From a virus (Duplodnaviria > Caudoviricetes), in the IMG/VR virus record IMGVR_UViG_3300032373_000034, positions 1 through 43,132 of that record: a stretch of DNA of 43,132 nucleotides. One strand, given 5' to 3'. The translations under genes and the position numbers were made by a program. Within the stretch, counting starts at the first letter, position 1. Each line of letters starts with the position of its first letter. The notes beneath the pieces were generated by a model, which was given only the letters and a program-made list of their open reading frames with translations, was not told where the DNA came from and made no database searches. Below, in pieces: positions 13,430 through 36,323 of this stretch.

Positions 13430-14937
13430 CAGGGATTCTCCTCGTTGTATCGCGCCCCAAAGAGCGCAAATTCTGTTTTGTCGGAAAATTCAATCTTGAA
13501 AACGCGCCCCGGTGGGGTCATGCGCCCAAGGTGTGCGGTCGTCGCCCGCGTCGTGTATTCGCCAGAAGCGCCAAGGCTCAAAGTCCGCGCTTGGCTTGTC
13601 TGGTAATCGCGCCCTAAATTGTCGGACCACGTAAGAGTCATAACAGGGTTAGCGTCGTCTGCATTACCTACGCCGCGTGTCGCGTCTACCGTGAAATTGA
13701 AGCAGGGGGCGTATTGGCGGGTGGGAGCAAAAATCGTGGCGACATGATTCAACTCGAATTTACTTGCTGCGTCTACACTTTGCTCGTAATATACGTCCGT
13801 GTCAAGTCTATGGATTGCGGCGTCGTAACGATTGCCGACATAGTGGTTGTTGTTCCACCAAACATAATTCCAAGGAACATAGCCGGGACGGACGGCAAAC
13901 GGGACAAGCCCTTGGCCTCCGCCGCCTGTTGTTTCCGCTGAACTCAATCGCTCGTGCCACTCTCCGGTCGTTGTGTCGTAAACAAAAGCCCCGACTTCGG
14001 CGCTAGGCTCTGCGACATTAAACACGACAAACTGGTGGCCGTCCTCTACATAAGAGAAGGCCGAAACAACTGCGGCGTTAATGTTCTGCAAATGTTCCGA
14101 AATAGCAGGTGTAGAAATAGGAACCGCGCTCGCCCCCTCTGCGCGGTAAACAACGCGGTCCTCGCCCATCCAGAATAGAGACTGCCCTACGCGGGTATGC
14201 GCCCAAGGGCCGATAATACCCTTGTCGATAATACCACCGGGGCGAAGCTGGAACGGCAAATCAGCGCGTCCAGTCGGTTGCCATATCTCGATATTGTCTT
14301 TCTCGAAAAGCCACAAATCCCCTCGAAACTCTGTTCCTGCCCGAAGGTTGGAGCCTTTGCGCTCCGCCGTGGCGAAGTTAAGAGCGTCGATATTCGCGCC
14401 GTCAAGCGTTTCTGACCACCAAAACTGGTCGTCGTCGTTCGGAATGAAAACAAACCGGCCCGCCAAATAAACAACATTGACGTAATTCAAATTACCCAAA
14501 TCATTGTCGAAGGCGTAGAGGTCGTAGAGGTCGGTTCCGTCATAGATATAAACTTTACCGCCGCTCGTAAACGCCATTTCTTGAATAGGAGCAAACGCCA
14601 TCGTTACGGGCAGCGAGTCGTTAGCTACGTTTTGACCAGACGTGCCTTGCGTAGTTGTGATGTTGGAGCCGACCGTTCCTGCAAGATTAATGCGCTTGAA
14701 CTGGTTATCGTAGACAACAAACATATCATTGCTGAACTGGTCAACAGACGTGCCTAACCCTCGCGTAATCGTTCCCGACAAATCCTTGTAGGTTGTCAGG
14801 CCGGGCGTCCGCATTAAGATAAACTGCCGGTCAGGCATGTTCGGCACAGCCTCTGGAAAGAGGTTGATCAGCTCGCGCGGAGGCACACCAACCGTTTCTC
14901 TCTCATAAAAGCCGGGACCGAACGCAATATCAGGCAT
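13429..14937 (-). CDS. P22 gp10-like DNA stabilisation / tail hub protein
   Basis: INLFPE, L..TPGL, LNFATAE, YD..TGEWHER, LTWSD..G. Confidence 0.8.
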   Translation of the reverse strand: MPDIAFGPGFYERETVGVPPRELINLFPEAVPNMPDRQFILMRTPGLTTYKDLSGTITRGLGTSVDQFSNDMFVVYDNQFKRINLAGTVGSNITTTQGTSGQNVANDSLPVTMAFAPIQEMAFTSGGKVYIYDGTDLYDLYAFDNDLGNLNYVNVVYLAGRFVFIPNDDDQFWWSETLDGANIDALNFATAERKGSNLRAGTEFRGDLWLFEKDNIEIWQPTGRADLPFQLRPGGIIDKGIIGPWAHTRVGQSLFWMGEDRVVYRAEGASAVPISTPAISEHLQNINAAVVSAFSYVEDGHQFVVFNVAEPSAEVGAFVYDTTTGEWHERLSSAETTGGGGQGLVPFAVRPGYVPWNYVWWNNNHYVGNRYDAAIHRLDTDVYYEQSVDAASKFELNHVATIFAPTRQYAPCFNFTVDATRGVGNADDANPVMTLTWSDNLGRDYQTSQARTLSLGASGEYTTRATTAHLGRMTPPGRVFKIEFSDKTEFALFGARYNEENP

Positions 14938-19729: not shown

Positions 19730-20650
19730 CTAGGCAGCGCCTTCCGAAGCGTAAGCACAACGCCAATCAACGAAGTCAAACACGTAACGCTCGACCGCAG
19801 AGGCCAAAGCGTTCTTCGTATTGAAGTCGTTGTCTTTGTCGAACTCAAGCGCCATACGTTCCTGATGAATCAGGCCCGTTCCACTTGGAACATCGTTCAG
19901 GATGAAGAATGCGTCGAGGTCGGTGAGGTAGTGGTTTACCACATAACCTTCCGGCAGCATTCCTTTAGAACGAAGGGCGTTCGTTGCGTTGTTCGCCGTG
20001 TCATTCTGCAAGGTCGAGTTCAGGATGCGCTCAGCATTGAACTGTTCGTTTGGAGTAATGACCAGCTTGCGCGGCATTAGCTTGATCTGGAAGCCACGGT
20101 CGTCCTTGGCGTTACCAATCTGGATAAGCAAGTCTTCCAGAGAGGCTTCGGAAAGGTCGGCCCCGGCGCTCAGTTCGTTCGACTGGTTGCCTGCGTACAT
20201 GGTTGGGTGATCGGTAGCAAAAAACTCTTTGCCATCGCCGCCCGCATAAGACGAGTTGAAGCCACGGTTGAAGATATTCGCACCGTTGATTTCTTTCGTC
20301 TGACGGAAAGAGTCAGCCAACCGGCCAGAACGGGCTTGCGCCAATTCTGCATACTGGTTGTCTGCGAGTTCTTCCATCGACACAGCGTAGCCAAGTGCGT
20401 AGGTTACGTTGCGCGAACGCTGGACGAAACCCTGTTGGTCCACATCATACGAGATAGCGGAGCCTTGACCCTTTTCAGCGGCAAGACCGTAACCAACAGA
20501 CTGCACACGCTCCTCGTAAGCCTTGTCAGAAGACACGGTTTCAAAGAGCTCTGCACACTCAAGAGGGTGGCGCTCATACTGAGTATGAAACCACTTCTTG
20601 ATGCCGGGCCATAACGCCTTTGGGTGATTGCTCGTTGTGATAACAGCCAT
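19730..20650 (-). CDS. Major capsid protein
   Basis: 306 aa, KALWPG, SF.QTKE..GAN.FN.GF, GGDG..F.TDHP, VNHYLTD, ERY.F..DWR; AAGGAG RBS. Confidence 0.9.
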   Translation of the reverse strand: MAVITTSNHPKALWPGIKKWFHTQYERHPLECAELFETVSSDKAYEERVQSVGYGLAAEKGQGSAISYDVDQQGFVQRSRNVTYALGYAVSMEELADNQYAELAQARSGRLADSFRQTKEINGANIFNRGFNSSYAGGDGKEFFATDHPTMYAGNQSNELSAGADLSEASLEDLLIQIGNAKDDRGFQIKLMPRKLVITPNEQFNAERILNSTLQNDTANNATNALRSKGMLPEGYVVNHYLTDLDAFFILNDVPSGTGLIHQERMALEFDKDNDFNTKNALASAVERYVFDFVDWRCAYASEGAA

Positions 20651-20662
20651 GAGTAATCTCCT

Positions 20663-21256
20663 TTAGACGCCAGCCGTTGCGCTGTTGTATTGGTGCTTGG
20701 AAATACGCACCTTCCAGACAGCGTTGGTTCCGACTTCGTTGTCGGGGGATTGATGAAGACCGACAACCTTCACATTCGTAAGGCCAACGTCAGTGCTGAC
20801 CGCAGAGGAATCAATTTCGGAGCCGGAGATACCGGAGGTCGTGCTGCCAGCAGCAAGAACCAAACGGAAGTTGTTACCAACACCTGCAACGCCAAGATTA
20901 CCATCCTCTTGAGCGAGGAAGACCTCATCGGGGTTGTCAGCGACGATAGCATACACGCCAGAGCCGGGTGTGGCGGCGGCGTATTTGGTATCGCCTTGCA
21001 GTTGGGTTCCCTCTTTCGAGGAAGCGAAGCCAACAACAACACCCACGATAGGCAGGTTGTTTGCGGTGGTTGTGGCTGCGACCGTGGTGAGACGGACTTC
21101 GGGAATACCGTTGGCGTCCGCAGTTCCAGTCAGTGTGACCGGATCGTAAAGGTAAATGGCAGAAGCGCCCGTAGCATCTACAGAATAGATGTTCGTTTGC
21201 TTATCAGAACCAAGACCCATCGGGCGAAGACCAAAGGCAGCATCAGCATTAGCCAT
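20663..21256 (-). CDS. Capsid-associated (cement/decoration) protein
   Basis: MANADAAFGLRP, V.DNPD..F.AQ; immediately before the capsid gene. Confidence 0.65.
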   Translation of the reverse strand: MANADAAFGLRPMGLGSDKQTNIYSVDATGASAIYLYDPVTLTGTADANGIPEVRLTTVAATTTANNLPIVGVVVGFASSKEGTQLQGDTKYAAATPGSGVYAIVADNPDEVFLAQEDGNLGVAGVGNNFRLVLAAGSTTSGISGSEIDSSAVSTDVGLTNVKVVGLHQSPDNEVGTNAVWKVRISKHQYNSATAGV

Positions 21257-21796: not shown

Positions 21797-22747
21797 TCAG
21801 GAGTTGTTGCGTGAGTATTCGCGCGCATATTCAAGACGGCCTTCTGGCGTGTCCTGATATATTTTCCGGCGCGCAAGGTCTTGAAAGCCCTTTTTCGCGT
21901 CTTGCGGCAAAGCATCGTAGGATGCTGACTTTTTGCGAGGGGAGGCAGACGAGCGGGCGTTGGTTGGTGATTGGTAATTGGTTGTTTTCGCGCGGTCGCC
22001 GGGGAAGAATTGATTTACCTTTGCCGCGACTTGGTTGAACACTTGACGCCGCAATTCCGGCTGTAACTCCAACGGGTTTGAAACGCCAAGGCGTTGATAT
22101 TCCTGACTCGCGATGAAGTTGGCATATTCAAACCGAGGAGCGGTTTCAACGTCGCCCTTCATGCCGGTTTCAAACCAAGGGTTTTGAGCGGTGAACTCTC
22201 GAAACACAGGGTCGGCGGCGACTTGCTGGACATGCTCTTGTTGTTCGCGCTGCGGGTCTTGTTGTTCCTGCGGGCGGGAAAGGTGTTGTTCAATCTCTTG
22301 GTTTACAGCGTCATATTCACGCTTGTCGCCAATATCGAACGCCTTATCGCGTTTAGCCTTTAGCGCGGCAATAGATTGCGTGTCTTGCTCCTGAAACCTG
22401 TCCATGACCTCACGGCGGAGGCGTTGAAGCTCCTGCTCGGCCCGTTCGGCGCGGGTTTGTATTTCCGGCAGTTGTTCAATGCGCTTGGAGTGGATGCCAA
22501 GGTATTTCTCGGCAGACATATAATTGGTAGTGTCGCCTTTCCACTCGGTCGGCTCTTTCCAGCCTAGAGCCTTGGCAAGACGAACTTGCTCAGGGTCTTC
22601 TCGTGGCCGCTGCGGAATCTGTGGCTCACCAAACTCCTCGTCGTCGCCGTCTTCTTCGAGGTCTTCAATCTCCTCTTGTTCGGGCGCGATTTCCTGCTCT
22701 ACAACTTCGCCTTCCGGCTCTGCGTATTCTTCAACAACATCAGTCAT
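21797..22747 (-). CDS. Scaffolding protein
   Basis: Acidic coiled coil, A..LGW.....W.GD, NPWF; between portal and capsid. Confidence 0.7.
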   Translation of the reverse strand: MTDVVEEYAEPEGEVVEQEIAPEQEEIEDLEEDGDDEEFGEPQIPQRPREDPEQVRLAKALGWKEPTEWKGDTTNYMSAEKYLGIHSKRIEQLPEIQTRAERAEQELQRLRREVMDRFQEQDTQSIAALKAKRDKAFDIGDKREYDAVNQEIEQHLSRPQEQQDPQREQQEHVQQVAADPVFREFTAQNPWFETGMKGDVETAPRFEYANFIASQEYQRLGVSNPLELQPELRRQVFNQVAAKVNQFFPGDRAKTTNYQSPTNARSSASPRKKSASYDALPQDAKKGFQDLARRKIYQDTPEGRLEYAREYSRNNS

Positions 22748-23075
22748 TTACAACTCCAAGGATTTCTGAATCTTGCAGGATCAGGTATCTGTTCCCGTCT
22801 TTCTCTGCGACTTGCTGGCCGTTATACTCACGGAAGGACACGACATCGCCCACCTTTGGGGCGTCTCGGTCTTCGAAGTATTCAGGCGAGCCGGGCGTTC
22901 CCATCGTGAAGGCTAGAGCGCCAAGCTCTACGACAACGGCTTGGGATTGCCGCCATTGTTCTTTTTCTATGATTTCATCAGGGAGAAGAACGCTCCCTTT
23001 CTTGGTTTCGACCTTTTCCGGCCTCACCAATACGCTGTAGCGTGTCGGGCGAAAGCCCGCCTCATTCGTCTTCAT
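22740..23075 (-). CDS. groES: GroES-like co-chaperonin
   Basis: P....VLVRP...ETKKGSVLLP..VVELG..PKVGD.V.F..Y.G..Y.IL.D.EILGVV. Confidence 0.8.
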   Translation of the reverse strand: MKTNEAGFRPTRYSVLVRPEKVETKKGSVLLPDEIIEKEQWRQSQAVVVELGALAFTMGTPGSPEYFEDRDAPKVGDVVSFREYNGQQVAEKDGNRYLILQDSEILGVVND

Positions 23076-25235: not shown

Positions 25236-26726
25236 TCAATATCCTGTTGTGTTGTTTCTGCCCATATCGGACGTGTAGCTGTCGTGAAGGCGGACGTTGG
25301 CCATGATGTCTTCGTCCAGAAGCCAATCAGCCTCGGTTTCGGGTGTTAAAGTGAATGTGAGAGACAGCGCATCGGCAATATCGGGGGAGTCCTCGCCGCG
25401 ACGCTTCATATCCACCTTGCGCTCAAGGCGTATCTGTCCAAGGTCAGTGATGGAGTATTCAGGGGCGACCAATTCCTTGCGAAGCTGCTCGTTATGTGGG
25501 AGGTCGGCGCGCTCAAGCCACTCTTTCATGCGGCCCCATAATTCGTCGCGCAAAAAACGGTAATGCTTCGGGTTGTGAGGGCGACGCCCAACATTCACGC
25601 CGATAGCGCGCGTATCGAAGCGGCGAACAATATCCAGCACACCGCCGCCAACGCCGACTTCATCAACGTAAGCCATAACAATGTCTTTATTGGTGCGAAG
25701 GATGCCGACAACCTGCTCGGCTAGTTCTTGGACGTTCAAGCCCTCAAAGCTCTCGACATGGGGTACTTTCGGGCCGCGCCGTAGCAGGATGCACGATTTA
25801 TCGTCACCAAAGCGGGCAACATCAACGCCCATGATAAGAGGGTAGCCCGACACTTCTTCGCGGCTGATTACCCGCTCAATGGCTTCTGAGACGGTTTCAG
25901 GCGATATAAACTGTGTCGCACCGTGGCGAGGGAACAAACCACGAACGCGGCGGCGCACAATGTCGCTATCCTCGCCGTAGACCTCCACCATATCCTCAAA
26001 GTATTTCTTGTTGGACGCGGCCTTGGCTGTGCGGGAGTCAATGTTGCGTGTGTTCCACAAGGTTTTCTTTTTGCCGTGGAAGCACTCATAAAAGCCACCA
26101 GAGGGGCGAAGCGGGTTTCCAAAGGCTAGGTGAATTGCGCCTGCGGTTGTCTGATAGCCTAGAGCGGCCTCCCAAATGCTTTGCGGGACACCAGAGGCTT
26201 CGTCCATAATCAGGACGTTGTGGTCAGCGTGGACACCAGCAAAGGCGTCGGGGTTGTTTTCGGACCACGGAATAGCCTCTGCGCGCCAGTTTGTCGGGTG
26301 CGAGACGTGGTAGAAGCTGGTTTTCTCCCATACAAACCAGTCTTTGTGGAACATGCGGGTGTGCCATAGGGCCAATTCACGCCATGTGGTCGAGTTAAGC
26401 TGCATTTCGGTGTTGGCGGTAACGCGGATACGGACATTCTGCCGGACGGTCATAAACCACAGCACAATAATGGCGATCAGGGCGGATTTACCAATACCGT
26501 TACCAGAGGCGACCGCCATAAGAACGGATTCATTCGTAACGCGGCTTCCTTTTATCTTGTCGGCCATGTCGTTTAGGAATGATTGTTGCCATTCGTCCAG
26601 ACCATCCCACTCGGCAAGCGGGCCTTTCTCCACGCCCCAAGGAAACGCCTCGTGAGCAAACTTTACAGGGTCGTCATACCAAGACGCCAATTTTTCCAAA
26701 ACATAATCATTGACGGTGTTAGACAT
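25236..26726 (-). CDS. terL: Terminase large subunit
   Basis: Walker A VASGNGIGKS, Walker B LIMDEAS, GNP, nuclease GVDVARFGDD, SPDIADAL.LTF. Confidence 0.95.
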   Translation of the reverse strand: MSNTVNDYVLEKLASWYDDPVKFAHEAFPWGVEKGPLAEWDGLDEWQQSFLNDMADKIKGSRVTNESVLMAVASGNGIGKSALIAIIVLWFMTVRQNVRIRVTANTEMQLNSTTWRELALWHTRMFHKDWFVWEKTSFYHVSHPTNWRAEAIPWSENNPDAFAGVHADHNVLIMDEASGVPQSIWEAALGYQTTAGAIHLAFGNPLRPSGGFYECFHGKKKTLWNTRNIDSRTAKAASNKKYFEDMVEVYGEDSDIVRRRVRGLFPRHGATQFISPETVSEAIERVISREEVSGYPLIMGVDVARFGDDKSCILLRRGPKVPHVESFEGLNVQELAEQVVGILRTNKDIVMAYVDEVGVGGGVLDIVRRFDTRAIGVNVGRRPHNPKHYRFLRDELWGRMKEWLERADLPHNEQLRKELVAPEYSITDLGQIRLERKVDMKRRGEDSPDIADALSLTFTLTPETEADWLLDEDIMANVRLHDSYTSDMGRNNTTGY

Positions 26727-29335: not shown

Positions 29336-29580
29336 TATCCCAGCTCCACGATAGCGGCGACAACAAGGGCCACAGCGAGGGACGCCGAAACCAGCGAGCC
29401 AAAGAGGCACAGGGCATGAAGAAAATAGTGCGCGCCCACTCCATACCACTTCTTCGAGTCGTAACTATCCCATGTCAGGTTTTTGGCGGCGTTAAAGCCC
29501 ATGCCAACAGCAAGCGTCAGAAACAATCCTGCTATTGCGGCCACGGCGATGTATGCTGCGATGTGAAATAAGGTTTCCAT
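29335..29580 (-). CDS. Small membrane protein (2 TM)
   Basis: AGGAGAG RBS; two hydrophobic helices. Confidence 0.65.
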   Translation of the reverse strand: METLFHIAAYIAVAAIAGLFLTLAVGMGFNAAKNLTWDSYDSKKWYGVGAHYFLHALCLFGSLVSASLAVALVVAAIVELG

Positions 29581-29604
29581 TTTTCTCTCCTGTTCAAGAT
29601 GGAG

Positions 29605-29633
29605 AGTTTAGCCCTGCAAGGGCTTCGCCGCAA
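29605..29633 (-). promoter_or_regulatory. Putative sigma70 promoter of the small-gene cluster
   Basis: TTGCGG-N17-TAAACT; the spacer contains inverted repeat AGCCC-TTGCA-GGGCT. Confidence 0.5.
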
Positions 29634-29646
29634 GCGATATTTGTCG

Positions 29647-30201
29647 CTATTGCGTTCCAAGCCTATTTGATTTGGAGCAGTTCTCAAACGCCGTCAGAAT
29701 CTGAAGGTTGTTCGCCACATGAAGGCCTGAGACGGCCCTCCCTCGAAGGGGAATGATGTGGTCAACGTGATACTCAACGCCCGCTCGTTCGGTGGCTTCA
29801 CGCGCCGCCTCATAGAACAGCGGAATCAAAGCCTGACAGCCGAAGACGGGTGTGCGGTTTAGTTTTGCGGCTCGGTGTTTGGCCGTCTGAGCATTTACCT
29901 TGCCCGGGTTGGCCTTGCGGTATTTGCGCACGTACTCACGCCTCGCCTCGCGGTTAGCTTTGTAATACGCGCGCAGCCTCTCTCGCCCCGCCTCTCGGCT
30001 GGCCCTGCCGTACTCGCGATTGTGCTCGCGCTTCGCTTCGGGATTGGCTTTGTAATACTCGCGCTGGTGCTCTCGGTGGCATTCTAGGCAGGTACCGTTA
30101 CTAACGAGGCGCTTTGCTGCGTGACCGTGCTTACAAGGCTTGCCGGTAAAGTAGCGAAGAAAACCCCGAGCCTTAGCGTCTTTGCGGGAAATTGTTTCCA
30201 T
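29647..30201 (-). CDS. HNH endonuclease
   Basis: [15 protein letters not shown]-terminus; [20 protein letters not shown]...EN..KSN. Confidence 0.9.
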
Positions 30202-30217
30202 AAATCAGCCCTGTTGC

Positions 30218-30232
30218 GTTCTGCTTATGTTC
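30218..30232. promoter_or_regulatory. Alphaproteobacterial LexA (SOS) box
   Basis: GTTC-TGCTTAT-GTTC overlapping divergent putative promoters that share palindromic AGTATACT. Confidence 0.7.
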
Positions 30233-30262
30233 GAGTATACTACCAATGACAGTTTTGGTAAA

Positions 30263-30521
30263 CTGGCCATATCTTGCAGGCGTTACAGCGGCCCCCTCAC
30301 GCCGGGGGAAAGAGCGAAGCCGGACTTAGACGGCGTCAGTTCGTGAGCAAGCACAAAAGGAGATCGATGCGGCCTTCCCCGCCTCTCGGTTGCACCCATC
30401 CTAGCGGATAAACGCCCCCAAATGATTCCTAATGGATATTCTTGCCTTGTCGTTGCATTGGCTTGGCGAGAATGATTGTCTCACGACATAACCGAGAAGT
30501 TCGCCCTGCACAACAGGCCAG
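30263..30521. ncRNA. Candidate structured non-coding RNA
   Basis: Ends pair (CTGGCC/GGCCAG, TGCAGG/CCTGCA); internal TCTCGGTT/AACCGAGA, TCGTGAG/CTCACGA, ATTCTTGCC/GGCGAGAAT; no ORF in track. Confidence 0.55.
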
Positions 30522-30639
30522 AACGACCACAGAGGATACAGCTCCCCGAAGCACTCCCGGCGAGCAGGACACCAATCCTAACCTCTAATGCAAAAACAAA
30601 TGGTCTGCCCACGTGGGGGATAGAACTACGTCCAAATTC

Positions 30640-30891
30640 CTAGCGAAGACCGTTGGCATCAAGAAACTCACCGAAACTACCATACCCACCAGAAGGCAAC
30701 ACACGCCCGACAGAAGGATCAGAGCCGCTAAGCGACTGCACAAACCTATATCGCCCGCACCGGGGGGACCACCGCGCAACACAGCGCGTTCCGTTGTCAA
30801 ACAAAACAGTAAAAGGGCTACGGCTCACGTCCAAACTCCTAATGATACGACAGAAATTATCGCAGAATTTTTTTCCAGCTATTTGAAACAT
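30640..30891 (-). CDS. Possible hypothetical protein
   Basis: Open frame from MFQIAG; weak RBS. Confidence 0.3.
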   Translation of the reverse strand: MFQIAGKKFCDNFCRIIRSLDVSRSPFTVLFDNGTRCVARWSPRCGRYRFVQSLSGSDPSVGRVLPSGGYGSFGEFLDANGLR

Positions 30892-31086
30892 TCCAAACAC
30901 ATTACCAGCGCCAGCAGAAAACCCAAACGGTTTCAGAAATGATGTGAGATTCAAGAAGGATATAGATAGGAAAAATAATCCAGAGATAGGTGGTGTATAG
31001 GACCCAGCCTCACCTCCTTCCCCTCCTCCCAGCACCCCCCACCACCCCGACTAGGTTCCCTACCCTTCCTGACGATGACCAAACCC

Positions 31087-31130
31087 GGAACAAAGCATGA
31101 ACACTAAACCATTGGGAACAAAGCATGAAC
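31087..31130. promoter_or_regulatory. Tandem LexA boxes (16-bp direct repeat GGAACAAAGCATGAAC x2)
   Basis: GAAC-AAAGCAT-GAAC at 31088-31102 and 31116-31130. Confidence 0.7.
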
Positions 31131-31466
31131 GCCATACCTGTGCCAGTTTGGAAACAATCGGGAGGGGATTGATGATGATATGGAAAGAGTGTAACCCACC
31201 CCCTCTAATATCCCTCATATCTCACCCCCATGATATTTAGCCATTTCCCGAATAACGGATGCAATATGTCTTGGCTTGTGTGTGTGTCTATATATACCGT
31301 CTTACACTAGCGCATTGATATTGCGTCACATTCCCTAATCATTGAGATAGGCTATAGCTTGCCCGGTTGGTATAGATATTATTGCCTGTGCAGTGTTTAC
31401 TCTTTGGTGCTATTAAGGGTGTGTGATCTGGCAATCAAGCTGGACAGCTAAGGGGAATAAAAGACC

Positions 31467-31688
31467 ATGACTAAACTTTCAAACGCTGACCAAGCCATCG
31501 CCGACATTGTGGCAATGCACAAAGATGAAAGCGCGGAAGCTGTGCAAGAATATGTTGTGAGCCGCATTAATCGCTCTGACCTGCTAGCCGTCTTCATTGG
31601 CTTGCAAGATCACCAATCGCTGAATGAAACAAACGCCGCCGACGACGCGATTGCGGTTATTCGCCCTATTCTGTTCGCCCCACGCTAG
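31467..31688 (+). CDS. Hypothetical protein
   Basis: AGGGGA RBS; first gene of the rightward island operon. Confidence 0.7.
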   Translation: MTKLSNADQAIADIVAMHKDESAEAVQEYVVSRINRSDLLAVFIGLQDHQSLNETNAADDAIAVIRPILFAPR

Positions 31689-31734
31689 GTGCCGACCATA
31701 TCAACGCCTAACCACAACAAAAGGAAATAAGACA

Positions 31735-32013
31735 ATGGACATCATCACAAATCACCAACCGCGCAACATCATCGGCTGGCATGAGTTAAGCGACGAAGAG
31801 CGCGCCGACTTTAACTGGGAAGGCGCAGACGAATGTGATTACTTCCGCTATCGCGGCAACGCTTATTGCTTGAGCGAATTTATGCGCGCTAGTGGCGACA
31901 TTGCTTTGCTTGGATGGGATGGGATGGAGGCGGATTCCTATTTTAGCGGAACCCTTGTTAAATATGCCGATGACTATGGTGATTCCATCATAGTGGCCTC
32001 TTGCTATAGCTAG
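31735..32013 (+). CDS. Hypothetical phage protein (acidic)
   Basis: Start set by the repeated leader; FRYRG..Y.LSEFMR, WDG...DSYFSG. Confidence 0.75.
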   Translation: MDIITNHQPRNIIGWHELSDEERADFNWEGADECDYFRYRGNAYCLSEFMRASGDIALLGWDGMEADSYFSGTLVKYADDYGDSIIVASCYS

Positions 32014-32041
32014 CGCCTAATCACAACAAAGGAATAAGACA

Positions 32042-32281
32042 ATGACACGCTATATAAACATTAAACCGCTTGAACGCTCGCGCGTTTATGAAACAGCAGA
32101 GCAGGCTATCGGCCACTTGTTTTTGTACCCTATAGGACAAAGCGATTGGAATGACGCAAGGCCTTGGGGCCATACTGTCACCGACATACGCCGCATTAAT
32201 GCCGCAAGGAAAGCGAAAGACTTTTCAGCGTTCAAAGCAGAGCAGCGTCGCGGATATTGGCGCGTAGAGCTGGCAAACTAA
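32042..32281 (+). CDS. Hypothetical protein
   Basis: Repeated leader plus ATG. Confidence 0.7.
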   Translation: MTRYINIKPLERSRVYETAEQAIGHLFLYPIGQSDWNDARPWGHTVTDIRRINAARKAKDFSAFKAEQRRGYWRVELAN

Positions 32282-32315
32282 CGATAACGCCTGACCAACA
32301 AAGGGAAATAAGACA

Positions 32316-33032
32316 ATGACCAATCTAACTTACAACTTGAATGCTGTATTGCTGGCTGCCGTTAATACGGCGAGGAGCTACGAGGAGACGCGCTATTATC
32401 TAGGCGGCGTTTATGTTTTCCCGCTTCCTAGCGGTGAGGGCGTCGGTATGGTCGCGACGGATGGCCATCGCATGATATGCGCGACTGACTTAACCGGATT
32501 TATTAGCGAGCCCGCTATCCTGTCTCTTGACAAGAAACTAGCCACAGCCTGCAAAGATGTGAAGGGCAAGATTCCTTCGCTTGTCTATGATGGAAGCGAA
32601 GCCGATTCAACGCACCAAGCCCGGCTTGAATTGCAAAGCGAAGATGGCGCGCAACTGGTAGCAGGCGGAATCGTTAATGTTATCTACGGGACATTTCCAG
32701 ACTTTCGCCGCATTATCCCAGACACATTTGACGCTCAGCCCGTATTGCTTTCCGGTAAGTATCTAGCCGATTTTAGCGCGGCTTCCTACAAGGCTTGTGT
32801 GGCTACAGGCTTTCCGATTGATAACCGCAACGCGGGAAAAATCGAGATTATCGGAGGTCATAGCGCTAATGACGCGCAACTAATCGGACTAGGAACGCCT
32901 CATTGCTTTGGCGTCCTAATGCCATTGCGCCGGAATGAATGCCGCAACACCCCAGAAAACGGCGGGGAGAAAGCGCGGGATTCATTCCTCGCCTTAATCA
33001 ACGAAAGCGAAAAGCAAACCAAGGCCGCTTAA
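32316..33032 (+). CDS. DNA polymerase III beta-clamp-like protein (truncated)
   Basis: ETRYYLGGV, VATDGHR, GTFPDFRRIIP, VLMPLR. Confidence 0.75.
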   Translation: MTNLTYNLNAVLLAAVNTARSYEETRYYLGGVYVFPLPSGEGVGMVATDGHRMICATDLTGFISEPAILSLDKKLATACKDVKGKIPSLVYDGSEADSTHQARLELQSEDGAQLVAGGIVNVIYGTFPDFRRIIPDTFDAQPVLLSGKYLADFSAASYKACVATGFPIDNRNAGKIEIIGGHSANDAQLIGLGTPHCFGVLMPLRRNECRNTPENGGEKARDSFLALINESEKQTKAA

Positions 33033-33075
33033 ACTAACAGGGCGCGAACGCCCCACAATAAAGGGAAACAAGACA

Positions 33076-34410
33076 ATGACTGACATAACCGCAACTTACA
33101 GCCCAGAAGACAATAAGCTAAGACTCTACGCATCAACGCGACTTGATGCCGAGACATTCGGCAAAGTAAAGGGGGCTGGATATAAATGGGCTCCTAAACA
33201 AGAGTTATTTGTTGCGCCTAAATGGACACCAGCCCGCGAGGATTTAGCGCTTGAATTAGCGGGAGAGATTGAACCAGAATCCATGACAATGGCAGAGCGC
33301 GCCGAGATTAAATCAGAGCGCCTTGCCGCTATTGCTGAGAACCGCAAGCGGGACGCGGAAACATACGCACGCCGCGCCGATGAATTGTCAGAATGCTTTT
33401 CAGGAGGCCAGCCGATTCTAATGGGCCACCATTCCCAGCGGAAGGCCGAGAAGACCGCCGAGAAAATGCGAAGCGCGCAGACCAAGGCAAACGATAACCT
33501 AAGCGCCATTGGTTATTGGCTTTATAAGGCCGAGAGTGTGCAACGCCACGCCAACTATAAAAACAGCGACAGGACGCGCGCGCGACGGATTAAAACCCTT
33601 CTCACGGAATTGAGAGACGTGCAGCGACGCATTAACGAAAATTACAAGGCGTTGGACCTTTTAGAGCGATGCACAACCGAGGCACAGATTCGCGCCTTTG
33701 TCGGCGGCGGATTTGCGTCCATGAATCTTTATTTGTCGCTGAGTAAAGACGAGATCACACCACAGGAGGCCCGCGAACAGCTTTTAACCGCCTATCGACG
33801 CCGGGTTAATAGCTCGCACTATTCGCGATGGACTAACCACATTCTAGGCCGGTTATCTTACGAACGAACCTTGTTAGGCCGCGTTACTCGCTTTGGCGGC
33901 ACATTAACCCCGGCAATTCTTCAAACATTCGCGCGAACGCATGGCGCAGACAAGCCCAAAGCAACCGCGCATGATGGTGACAGGTTCACAATCGAAAGCC
34001 CGGCACCTTTACCGCTTCACATCGCAAGCGGGCACACGCTGGACCTTGATTGCGAAGAATGGCGCGACTTGATGGAATCTGTAGGCTATGAAGTGCCCGC
34101 AAAGAAAGCAGGCCCGCCGCCGATCCTAAATTTTAAGGCGGAAAAGCTCTGGACTAAAAACCGCTATCACGGAACGCTTATCACCATGCGCCAAGTCGGA
34201 ATGACCAAGGCGGAATATAAAGAAGCAACGCGGTTTTCAAACGCATGGATCGATACAAGCTATTGCGGGCAATTCCGGTTTAAGACTGTGACAGACCCAC
34301 ACTCAAAAGAGGCTTATTACATGCGCGAGCGTGTAGCCGTGTTTTTGACCGATAGCAAAGCGCACACCGCACCGGAAGGCATTGAACCACAAGAGGAGGC
34401 CGCAGCATGA
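33076..34410 (+). CDS. DUF3560-type protein
   Basis: ATYSPEDNKLRLY, WAPKQELFVAP.WTP.RED, GQPILMGHHS.R.A. Confidence 0.75.
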   Translation: MTDITATYSPEDNKLRLYASTRLDAETFGKVKGAGYKWAPKQELFVAPKWTPAREDLALELAGEIEPESMTMAERAEIKSERLAAIAENRKRDAETYARRADELSECFSGGQPILMGHHSQRKAEKTAEKMRSAQTKANDNLSAIGYWLYKAESVQRHANYKNSDRTRARRIKTLLTELRDVQRRINENYKALDLLERCTTEAQIRAFVGGGFASMNLYLSLSKDEITPQEAREQLLTAYRRRVNSSHYSRWTNHILGRLSYERTLLGRVTRFGGTLTPAILQTFARTHGADKPKATAHDGDRFTIESPAPLPLHIASGHTLDLDCEEWRDLMESVGYEVPAKKAGPPPILNFKAEKLWTKNRYHGTLITMRQVGMTKAEYKEATRFSNAWIDTSYCGQFRFKTVTDPHSKEAYYMRERVAVFLTDSKAHTAPEGIEPQEEAAA

Positions 34411-35033
34411 GGCCGGACCTATACAAACCATTAGCGGGAGCCTTGCGGCTTCCTGTTATCCCTCGCAGAAGTGACGCACCGGAGCGCATAGACTTTGCAG
34501 CACAGGCCGAGCCCATCAGCATCGACAAGGCCAGCGAGTGCCATGTAACGCCGCCACACATTGCCGCGTTAATGGCGGACCAATTCGACGCGCCGGGAGA
34601 TAAGCAAACGCTAGAACCGTCAGCGGGAACCGGGAGCCTTGCGCGGGCAATGATCGAGGCCGGACAAAGCGAGTTAGAACTAACAATAGTCGAACGGCAC
34701 ATAGGACTAGCGCGCGGGCTTGCCTCTCAATTCAAAGATGCCGGACACGTTAACCGCTGTTTTCTGGAATATGCCGAGGAGGCGTGCGGCAAGGTCCAGT
34801 TTCGCCAAATTATAATGAACCCGCCATTCAGCAAGGTTAAAGCCCACATGAGGGCCGCGTTATCCTTACTTGGCAGCAATGGCCACGGCACGCCGGGTGA
34901 ATTGGTGGCGCTTGTCCCGATAACATACGAACACCCCGACGCCTACACTGTGCAGGAATTAGGACCGGACACGTTCGCAACCGCAAAAGTCAGGACGAAA
35001 ATCATTAAGATCGAACAGGAGTCAGAACAATGA
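34407..35033 (+). CDS. SAM-dependent N6-adenine/N4-cytosine DNA methyltransferase
   Basis: Motif I LEPSAGTG, motif IV MNPPF. Confidence 0.85.
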   Translation: MRPDLYKPLAGALRLPVIPRRSDAPERIDFAAQAEPISIDKASECHVTPPHIAALMADQFDAPGDKQTLEPSAGTGSLARAMIEAGQSELELTIVERHIGLARGLASQFKDAGHVNRCFLEYAEEACGKVQFRQIIMNPPFSKVKAHMRAALSLLGSNGHGTPGELVALVPITYEHPDAYTVQELGPDTFATAKVRTKIIKIEQESEQ

Positions 35034-35209
35034 GAACGGCAACACTACACACAACCGCGACACAAGGCGACAACAAAGCCGGAACGCCTATCTTTATCTT
35101 GCCAGAACGCGACAACCTTGGAAGGCGCCTTGCAGTTTGGCAAAGCGGAAGGGGCAAGGCGTTTCCGATTCAAGGCTTCCACATTGTAAAGCAAGAGGCC
35201 AGCCAATGA
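35030..35209 (+). CDS. 59-aa hypothetical protein (not in ORF track)
   Basis: AGGAG RBS; ATGA overlaps at both ends. Confidence 0.55.
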   Translation: MRTATLHTTATQGDNKAGTPIFILPERDNLGRRLAVWQSGRGKAFPIQGFHIVKQEASQ

Positions 35210-35301
35210 ACGCGCGGCAATGGCTAGGCGAGATTGCCCGCTTCATAGCTGTCTGCATCGTCATGGCGGTCTGGATAGCCGCCTTGTCTTTCTTTCAATA
35301 G
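35206..35301 (+). CDS. 31-aa single-TM peptide (not in ORF track)
   Basis: GAGG RBS; MNARQWLGEIARFIAVCIVMAVWIAALSFFQ. Confidence 0.55.
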   Translation: MNARQWLGEIARFIAVCIVMAVWIAALSFFQ

Positions 35302-35312
35302 GAGAAACTGAA

Positions 35313-35627
35313 ATGGAAACGAAACACACACCCGGCCCGTGGAGCGCCACGAACGACACAGTTAAAGGCCCGTCTGGCAACATCGTTGCTGAATGCATGG
35401 GCTATTCCGTGAAGGCGACCGCCCCTGAACAACGCGCGCAAGGCGGGCGAGAAGCTAACGCTCATCTAATAGCTGCCGCCCCTGAATTGTTGGAGGCTTG
35501 CCGCAATCTTTCGCAATACGTTGCCAAAGGCATAGCAGACGGAGCCTTCAAGGATTGCGTTTTACCAAAGGGCGCAGAAAAACGGCTAAACCAAGCACAA
35601 GCCGCAATCGCGAAAGCGACTAGCTAA
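35313..35627 (+). CDS. Phage protein of the HTPGPW...ANA.LIAAAPELL type
   Basis: AGGAG RBS, ATG 35313; hallmark motifs. Confidence 0.75.
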   Translation: METKHTPGPWSATNDTVKGPSGNIVAECMGYSVKATAPEQRAQGGREANAHLIAAAPELLEACRNLSQYVAKGIADGAFKDCVLPKGAEKRLNQAQAAIAKATS

Positions 35628-35652
35628 ACCTTGAACCCCTTTCCCTCAACTC

Positions 35653-35679
35653 GCCCGCGCTAATGCGGGCATTTTTTTT
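35653..35679 (+). terminator. Rho-independent terminator
   Basis: GCCCGC-GCTAAT-GCGGGC-A-T8. Confidence 0.85.
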
Positions 35680-35684
35680 GCCTG

Positions 35685-35712
35685 CAATTAGAACAAAACA
35701 CGAACCCGTCAA
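35685..35712 (-). promoter_or_regulatory. LexA box (35691-35705) inside a putative leftward promoter
   Basis: TTGACG-g-GTTC-GTGTTTT-GTTC-TAATTG. Confidence 0.6.
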
Positions 35713-35768: not shown

Positions 35769-36323
35769 TCAAGGCTCTAACGCCTCTTGTGGGCTATCCT
35801 GTGCGGTAATATCCACGTATTCCGCGTCGATGGTCGCGTCGTCTATCGCTTTCGCTTTCTTGGCGCTATCCATTGCTGACAATATGTCTTTTAGATTGTC
35901 AGGCGTGATCGAAAGGCTTGTTTTTGTGTTTGGCCTGTGTCTGGCACCATCCGAACGCTTAAGGTTTTCAAGATGGTTTAGACCCTTATCACGCGCCGAA
36001 ATCTCGGCGTTATCCATCTGGCCAGCTTGGTCTAGCAGGTAAATAGATTCCCTAAATTGCCTATCGTGTATCCATTCGGACCGCGCTTCTAGGGCTTCCA
36101 GATAGACTTCCTTTAGGTCAGGGTCGCGACGAATAAACATCATTAGTGCGCCTTGTGAAACGCCTATGCGTTCCGCTTCCTGCTCTACAGTCATGCCACC
36201 CGCTAATCGTTCCATCGTCAATTCGTATTCATCACAACCCGCCTCAGCGTTCCAGCGCATAAGAGCCGAACGAGTAGCGCCGTCACGTTGAAGGCGAACC
36301 CTCTTGCCTACCTTCTTGGGCAT
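35769..36323 (-). CDS. terS: Terminase small subunit
   Basis: RLAGGMT....A..IGVS...L..FI..DP.....Y..A.EAR HTH; C-terminal IDAEY. Confidence 0.65.
   Translation of the reverse strand: MPKKVGKRVRLQRDGATRSALMRWNAEAGCDEYELTMERLAGGMTVEQEAERIGVSQGALMMFIRRDPDLKEVYLEALEARSEWIHDRQFRESIYLLDQAGQMDNAEISARDKGLNHLENLKRSDGARHRPNTKTSLSITPDNLKDILSAMDSAKKAKAIDDATIDAEYVDITAQDSPQEALEP

Follow-up and report, generated by a model that had tools for sequence, protein, structure and literature searches.

We found that the window, the whole 43,132-nt stretch of viral DNA analysed here, very probably encodes a structured non-coding RNA on its + strand, and that the neighboring HNH-type endonuclease gene is very probably independent of this RNA, the pairing of the two being likely incidental. 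The reading that we favor, as yet tentatively, is a stand-alone, pseudoknotted phage RNA of about 350 nt under LexA control, which would act as a protein-binding decoy or scaffold after SOS induction, with the HNH gene as an independent neighbor. An earlier sequence-only reading had joined a closed RNA of ~260 nt and the HNH nuclease into one module across a LexA-boxed bidirectional promoter. Few large structured phage RNAs are known, and what they do is an open question. If the favored reading is true, it would offer a 350-nt RNA with a readable on-switch (the host LexA box) and a size suited to probing and cryo-EM, and SOS induction would be a built-in condition for finding the partner of the RNA. 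A new RNA-guided HNH nuclease is unlikely, and the narrow known range and the lack of a cultured host limit the present use.

Genome setting and host

The window is one whole contig with portal, large terminase (terL), head, ejection, replication, and RusA-like genes, and is a whole podovirus-like phage genome. Both contig ends (1-150 and 42990-43132) read the same stretch of a NinB-like protein, which makes a circular or permuted, near-complete genome likely. The host is likely an alphaproteobacterium; the best 12 plasmid matches of the phage SSB all come from alphaproteobacteria. The nearest terL of a cultured phage reaches only 44%, so there is no close cultured phage. Among the ORFs scanned, we found no integrase, reverse transcriptase, or cI-type repressor; since the first and the last of these are missing there, a temperate life style is not shown. 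ARAGORN found 0 tRNA genes in the genome.

The RNA region belongs to a largely non-coding interval (30202-31466) some 3.5 kb upstream of terL. We take 30640-31080 to be the probable packaging site from its position and from features typical of such sites, and ORF 35769-36323, without a match in the family scans, is presumably the small terminase by its resemblance to known ones. Between this presumed small terminase gene and terL, and oriented opposite to both, lies a + strand block (31467-35627) encoding a beta-clamp-like protein, a DUF3560 protein, and a methyltransferase; a comparable arrangement is seen in the distant relative L335. A GroES-like gene (22740-23075, - strand) directly follows the portal gene. 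The start of the major head gene (20401-20740) folds with z -3.7 on the - strand and -2.7 on the + strand in a coarse scan with 8 shuffles. Four terminase relatives (P0121, P0019, P0021, and P0060) are 817-834 aa long, and three of them match PF14528 and PF05204, which suggests an intein-like insert; P0121 belongs to the window's own 90% cluster.

Extent and folding of the RNA element

The element and its parts, with ends placed from folding, the contigs of a relative, and variants, are as follows.

30248..30600, + strand: candidate non-coding RNA, ~350 nt, both ends approximate
30263..30521, + strand: domain 1, closed by P1 (30263-68/30516-21 and 30275-80/30505-10)
30292..30334, + strand: hairpins H1 (CCCCC/GGGGG) and H2 (GCCG/CGGC), with wobble-keeping variants
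30341..30497, + strand: predicted pseudoknot core, in which helix a (30341-47/30480-86) crosses helix b (30384-91/30490-97)
30398..30409, + strand: hairpin H4 (ATCC/GGAT), with a double-sided change and two loop changes
30437..30474, + strand: hairpin H6 with an 18-nt loop, pair probability 0.98
30531..30586, + strand: domain 2, AGAGG/CCTCT around two hairpins, from folding and variants
30603..30643, no strand assigned: conserved unstructured tail that three contigs of the relative retain, containing a palindrome and one of two copies of a 15-nt repeat

All eight strings to which the sequence-only reading had given positions lie where it placed them, and its hairpin arms, promoter hexamers, and inverted repeat are present. 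It had proposed a comparison with shuffled sequences, and there the region 30263-30521 folds with z -2.6 on the + strand (1/200 shuffles as good) and only -0.8 on the - strand (47/200). The range 30248-30590 reaches z -2.9, and in a coarse scan of 340-nt windows across the genome, one of 52 scored as low as the RNA element. Perfect helices of at least 6 bp number 9 vs 6.3 ± 2.2 in shuffles, a count that 17% of 300 shuffles reach. A crossing helix pair with adjacent 3' strands, a feature chosen after the fact, occurs in 10/300 shuffles. The sequence by itself is thus only modest evidence for an RNA.

P1 has a pair probability of 0.84-1.0 in the window strain. Helices a and b, the latter a plain 8-bp helix, have their 3' strands 3 nt apart and pair probabilities of 0.25 and 0.51, respectively; the fold model cannot hold both. 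H4 reaches only 0.15 in the fold. For the loop of H6, 30587-30593 (7 bp) and 30522-30527 (6 bp) are possible pairing partners. The end formerly set at 30521 had to be given up, as the element continues through domain 2 (fold z -2.6 to -3.8, depending on the window) to ~30590. Beyond it, the tail at 30603-30643 has no folding signal and is likely a DNA site. Its 15-nt direct repeat (30628-30642 / 30827-30841, 14/15 alike, 199 nt apart) may represent terminase binding sites.

The region had been described as free of tracked ORFs; short + strand ORFs of 54 and 55 aa, starting from TTG, do overlap it. We rejected these as coding because indels of the relative frameshift them. The complementarity of the RNA to its own genome is at chance level, with no match of more than 15 nt elsewhere. 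An antisense role of 30494-30510 on the leader of an 81-aa gene was likewise rejected, the 14/17 repeat being by estimate within chance. The placement of GGA motifs serves to recognize CsrA sponges; here, GGA lies mostly in stems, and we dropped this candidate. A 71-aa ORF on the - strand (30585-30800), with a hydrophobic stretch and no NCBIfam family, ends at the 3' tail of the RNA.

Natural variants of the element

The run index gave 10 runs, drawn from 8 studies and with one that is possibly the source; four of the 10 were examined. Two of the 10 are RNA runs (one sample, share 0.09); the one examined gave 0 contigs and is uninformative on expression. Run X2 (microbial mat) holds the same strain across the HNH-RNA junction, identical to the window. 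Run X3, with a depth of 2-3 and no cover over the RNA, was left out of the analysis. In run X10 (estuary), the contigs of relatives cover 30254-30643 and 30894-31102, and its two main, adjoining contigs differ from the window by 19/137 and 17/249 letters. All covariation comes from this run, in effect from one relative. Substitutions were counted only away from contig ends, which gave 18 in the element; the 14 least-supported variant rows, by their depth probably a depth-2 contig outside the element, were left out.

The helices were fixed beforehand as those of the sequence-only reading plus domain 2 from the fold. On the + strand, the 18 substitutions break 0 pairs, and include two double-sided changes and three changes from C-G to U-G. 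A permutation test that preserves the types of change, and excludes the 25-nt deletion described below, expects 4.6 breaks and gives P(0) = 0.0019, with P(0 broken and at least 2 double-sided) = 1.3e-4. The double-sided changes are A30398G/T30409C in H4 (A-U to G-C) and C30544T/G30562A in domain 2 (C-G to U-A); the C-to-T changes at 30294, 30296, and 30320 form U-G pairs on the + strand and mismatches on the - strand. The remaining changes and insertions in domain 2 fall in loops, and the small indels lie in unpaired positions in 5/5 cases. The earlier helices alone give P = 0.021, the + strand centroid P = 0.003, and the + strand MFE model, with 3 pairs broken, P = 0.044, in contrast to P = 0.39-0.85 for the - strand models. 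The stems are not poorer in substitutions (7/18 substitutions vs 97/260 positions paired). Since the variants keep the + strand helices and the - strand models fail, we consider a genuine RNA likely, encoded on the + strand and exceeding the length first reported; the strand, for which the evidence was once called mixed, is now resolved to +.

The covariation check that the sequence-only reading had suggested finds its named helices kept by the substitutions of this one relative, with no covariation in the crossing helix. In X10, no variant falls in a, a', or b', and the 5' strand of helix b lies too near the contig ends to be read; without a change in helices a and b, the pseudoknot pairing is a prediction only. 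The 61-nt block 30434-30494, which holds H6, has no listed variant. One X10 contig lacks 25 nt (30495-30519), so that the 3' strand of P1 is gone and 12 bp are broken, and helix b is restored from the next letters. This deletion counts against the closed model: P1 is predicted to pair in the window strain as had been proposed, but closure is not a conserved property.

It is distinctly unlikely that there is no functional RNA, and that the pairings are due to chance or act in DNA, the block being kept together with the packaging or promoter region. Helix counts alone near chance, the other window that folds as well in the coarse scan, the loss of P1, and the single relative would fit this explanation. 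The two double-sided and three wobble-keeping changes and the strand asymmetry argue against it, as does the distant L335, whose packaging intergenic region looks similar without the RNA block.

Promoter region and LexA boxes

Two features occupy the gap between the HNH gene and the RNA, which contains AGTATACT, TTGCGT, and the inverted repeat TACCAA/TTGGTA.

30214..30262, no strand assigned: predicted divergent, overlapping sigma-70-like promoters with a common TATACT (TTGCGT-N16 rightward, TTTACC-N17 leftward)
30218..30232, + strand: alphaproteobacterial-type LexA box GTTC-N7-GTTC, placed within the -35/-10 spacer of the rightward promoter and immediately beyond the start of the leftward one

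The bidirectional promoter of the sequence-only reading stands as to its hexamers. In a consensus promoter scan, the leftward promoter passes, and the rightward TTGCGT, with a -35 matching 3/6, is absent from the list. The same scan offers an alternative + strand candidate, ATGACA-N18-TATCTT (30246-30275), which would place the RNA start near 30282 and at a greater distance from the LexA box; such a start lies after the 5' strand of P1, and P1 would therefore be incidental.

The LexA box is present as had been claimed, and GTTC-N7-GTTC is described as the alphaproteobacterial LexA motif (PMC8565304). There are 6 such boxes in the genome vs 1.5 expected, and 0/100 shuffles reach 6. Other LexA-type boxes lie at 31088-31130 (two in tandem, preceding the + strand gene block), at 35691-35705 (between convergent genes, just past the terminator of that block), at 25932, and at 14083; two LexA-type boxes are inside genes. 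The box at 31088 keeps both half-sites and has a spacer changed at two places (runs X2 and X10); the box at 30218 is covered by the identical strain only, so half-site conservation is seen for the 31088 box alone. We found no phage repressor with a peptidase domain, and for this reason host LexA may be the main switch; alternatively, a phage repressor with a similar site may act at the box.

It is possible, though on balance unlikely, that the element is a cis-acting leader or antiterminator whose structure in the nascent transcript lets polymerase cross the packaging region into 31467-35627. The element follows the promoter immediately, we found no + strand terminator beyond it, and near 35650-35680 a hairpin with a run of T closes the next set of + strand genes. 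However, ~870 nt separate the element from the first convincing + strand gene, for which a separate promoter candidate (31315) and two LexA boxes are present, the DNA of the relative after 30643 differs from the window, and no Rfam antiterminator matches.

The HNH gene and its independence from the RNA

The leftward side of the region comprises three features.

29647..30201, - strand: free-standing HNH-type endonuclease gene, 184 aa, assigned by PHROG matches
29647..30221, no strand assigned: 564-nt HNH cassette with 11-nt direct repeats (29647-57 / 30211-21, 10/11 alike)
29581..29646, - strand: leader of the 81-aa gene with three hairpins (fold z -2.1), the last of which buries the ribosome-binding site

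The protein matches PHROG 1035 (E 8e-23) and PHROG 1271 (HNH; E 0.007), and its nearest named Atlas cluster has PF01844 in 63% of members. It has no Pfam family above threshold, reaches no NCBIfam cut-off, and has no RuvC family match, in agreement with the earlier statement that it is not IscB. It has 584 related viral stretches. Its transcription probably starts at the leftward promoter.

In one X10 contig, the HNH gene is missing and 29606 is linked to 30255. The window minus the cassette would leave 84 nt between these positions, compared with ~76 nt deduced for the contig from record lengths. The joint comes from a single contig (depth 4, with 31 letters on its shorter side), mapped at 80% likeness, a level at which joints from other organisms can arise. 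The stretch 29576-29606 is kept in this contig ahead of different DNA. A one-sequence covariance model found a similar RNA at 0/80 of the best HNH homologue loci. Among the distinct upstream regions of HNH homologues, 36/68 abut a same-strand ORF within 30 nt, 6/68 are mostly non-coding, and 0/68 have a LexA box; the single strongly folding one (L055) looks like DNA repeats. The HNH-less contig, the direct repeats around the cassette, and the homologue loci with their unrelated contexts speak against the proposed HNH-associated module, and the gene is likely an independent homing-endonuclease insertion, for which homing is predicted.

That the RNA guides or assists the HNH protein, as in an OMEGA-like module, is extremely improbable. 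The 60-nt spacing, the common promoter region and box, and the same junction in run X2 would suit such a role; the opposite strands, the HNH-less contig, the missing RNA at 80 homologue loci, the count of 6/68 non-coding upstream regions, and the lack of a RuvC family match all oppose it.

Eight identical letters open both the HNH gene and the 81-aa gene downstream of it (29573-29594 / 30194-30215), as if the translation start had been copied by the insertion. In the leader of the 81-aa gene, the hairpin that buries the ribosome-binding site spans 29581-29607. Near an HNH homologue, the abiF RNA motif scores above its gathering score (L029, 4775-4812).

Searches for families and homologues

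The Rfam 15 covariance models gave 0 matches over the whole window and 0 up to E = 10 on 30230-30660, a negative that takes in GOLLD, ROOL, HEARO, group I and II introns, and tmRNA and upholds the earlier statement that no known RNA family is recognizable. Searching phages and plasmids with blastn recovered no sequence other than the window's own record. No homologue came from pattern scans of viral contigs: one gave 4 matches, all true RNase P, and the others gave 0, 19, and 120 of ~970 examined (8/64 parts scanned). Scans of genome contigs (94 and 14 candidates) yielded no homologue by nhmmer or the model, and neither did a scan of metagenome contigs (16 candidates), in which L325 is identical to the window. 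The best non-self matches, L321 (E 0.035) and L432 (E 0.002, seed only), were rejected as seed-driven.

With the one-sequence covariance model, the best E was 0.088 (L347) over 98 terL loci, L415, and the window, and 0.17 over 85 loci including all 80 HNH loci; 5 loci searched without filters and 3 whole records gave no homologue. Neither a DNA search of 401 alphaproteobacterial genomes nor a terL search (E 1e-60) of 401 genomes from a single family gave a match. Clade-specific terL patterns found no close relative, and terL relatives exist as proteins that are 68-92% identical. Our literature search, which leaned to open-access papers and covered mainly listings and abstracts, found no description of the RNA. 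The RNA is likely new and, so far, narrowly distributed.

Proposed mode of action

Under the favored reading of a LexA-controlled, stand-alone RNA, host LexA would bind the box between the -35 and the -10 and silence both directions. DNA damage, or infection before LexA binds, would release transcription from ~30248. The RNA would fold into the variant-supported hairpins around the predicted pseudoknot and would then bind a protein as a decoy or scaffold. We infer protein binding by elimination, because there is no kept ORF, no complement of more than 15 nt, no ribozyme signature, and no + strand gene right behind the RNA.

Comparison with known systems

GOLLD and ROOL are described as phage or prophage RNAs of unknown function, of which GOLLD rises during lysis, and phage RNAs that form RNA-only complexes are known (PMC12286853). 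Like these, the present element is phage-encoded, non-coding, multi-domain, ornate, and, by prediction, pseudoknotted. It differs in its length of ~350 nt, compared with 659 nt for a ROOL example and often more than 800 nt, in its narrow range, in the LexA box at its promoter, and in having no Rfam match and no tRNA island; both the length above 500 nt and the tRNA neighborhood of that group are missing. A self-assembling structural RNA (a GOLLD/ROOL-like cage) or a packaging-motor RNA like prohead RNA is improbable. The multi-domain fold, the open complementary loops, the location between the probable packaging site and terL, and the RNA-only complexes of other phage RNAs are in keeping with it. 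Against it are the length, at most half that of ROOL, the genome without tRNA genes, and the absence of the RNA at 98 terL-relative loci in the model search, so that it is not a general motor part. To our knowledge, P22-like motors need no RNA, which we also count against a motor role. It is quite improbable that a new class of multi-pseudoknot RNA, directly controlled by the host SOS system and encoded next to the packaging site, acts alone, either as a ribozyme with a novel fold or as a packaging RNA that self-assembles in a podovirus of the terminase type.

The element resembles class A RNase P RNA (RF00010) in length and in the pseudoknot strand order P1-P2-P3-P4, and 21 of the 24 positions of 30470-30493 match two RNase P RNAs (J18/2-P2-J2/4), which were themselves retrieved with a pattern built on the resemblance. 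These features would favor a ribozyme, either RNase P-like or a new self-cleaving RNA, which we regard as highly improbable. Of the 29 RNase P RNAs in an unbiased alphaproteobacterial set, 2 matched at P <= 0.05, and one of the two did so at the look-alike site; a profile built from all 29 gave no match to the region; and Rfam gave nothing up to E = 10. The hallmark of RNase P is described as CR-I/CR-V in P4 with a conserved bulged U (PMC4919922), and a search of both strands found no such P4 catalytic signature. The strand order itself is similar, with the look-alike shifted relative to helix a and P1 missing from the relative. We rejected kinship with RNase P, and a decoy for RnpA, as the resemblance is lost in the unbiased set.

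Group I introns have a P3-P7 core with P8 between the 3' strands and lie inside an interrupted gene; here, only 3 nt separate a' and b', there is no interrupted ORF, and no model matches, so this candidate was rejected. So was tmRNA, with no Rfam match and 0 genes by ARAGORN.

HEARO RNA is described as lying within the 5' UTR of a gene whose protein combines RuvC and HNH with a PLMP domain (PMC9755519). The present RNA shares with HEARO and the omega-RNA of IscB a place upstream of an HNH-bearing gene. In contrast to them, it lies on the opposite strand, the protein is a 184-aa HNH protein without RuvC, and the link is not kept; the RuvC+HNH+PLMP protein, the same-strand 5' UTR, and the obligate linkage are all missing. 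The HNH gene is closer to the free-standing phage HNH genes, which are described as clustering near terminase and other essential genes (PMC10448857): it is free-standing, near terminase, and present or absent among relatives. Its nuclease domain is recognized by PHROG 1035/1271 and the PF01844 of the Atlas cluster, below the Pfam threshold, and its contexts vary, the empty site being seen in one contig. It differs in being inserted into a LexA-boxed leader.

The promoter recalls phage GIL01, which is described as held shut by host LexA (PMC4551915), in that a phage promoter carries host SOS boxes. Here, the GTTC-N7-GTTC box is at the promoter and enriched in the genome, with half-sites conserved at the 31088 box, as expected of an alphaproteobacterial LexA box. 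Compared with GIL01, the box is a direct repeat of the alphaproteobacterial type, and the predicted product is an RNA.
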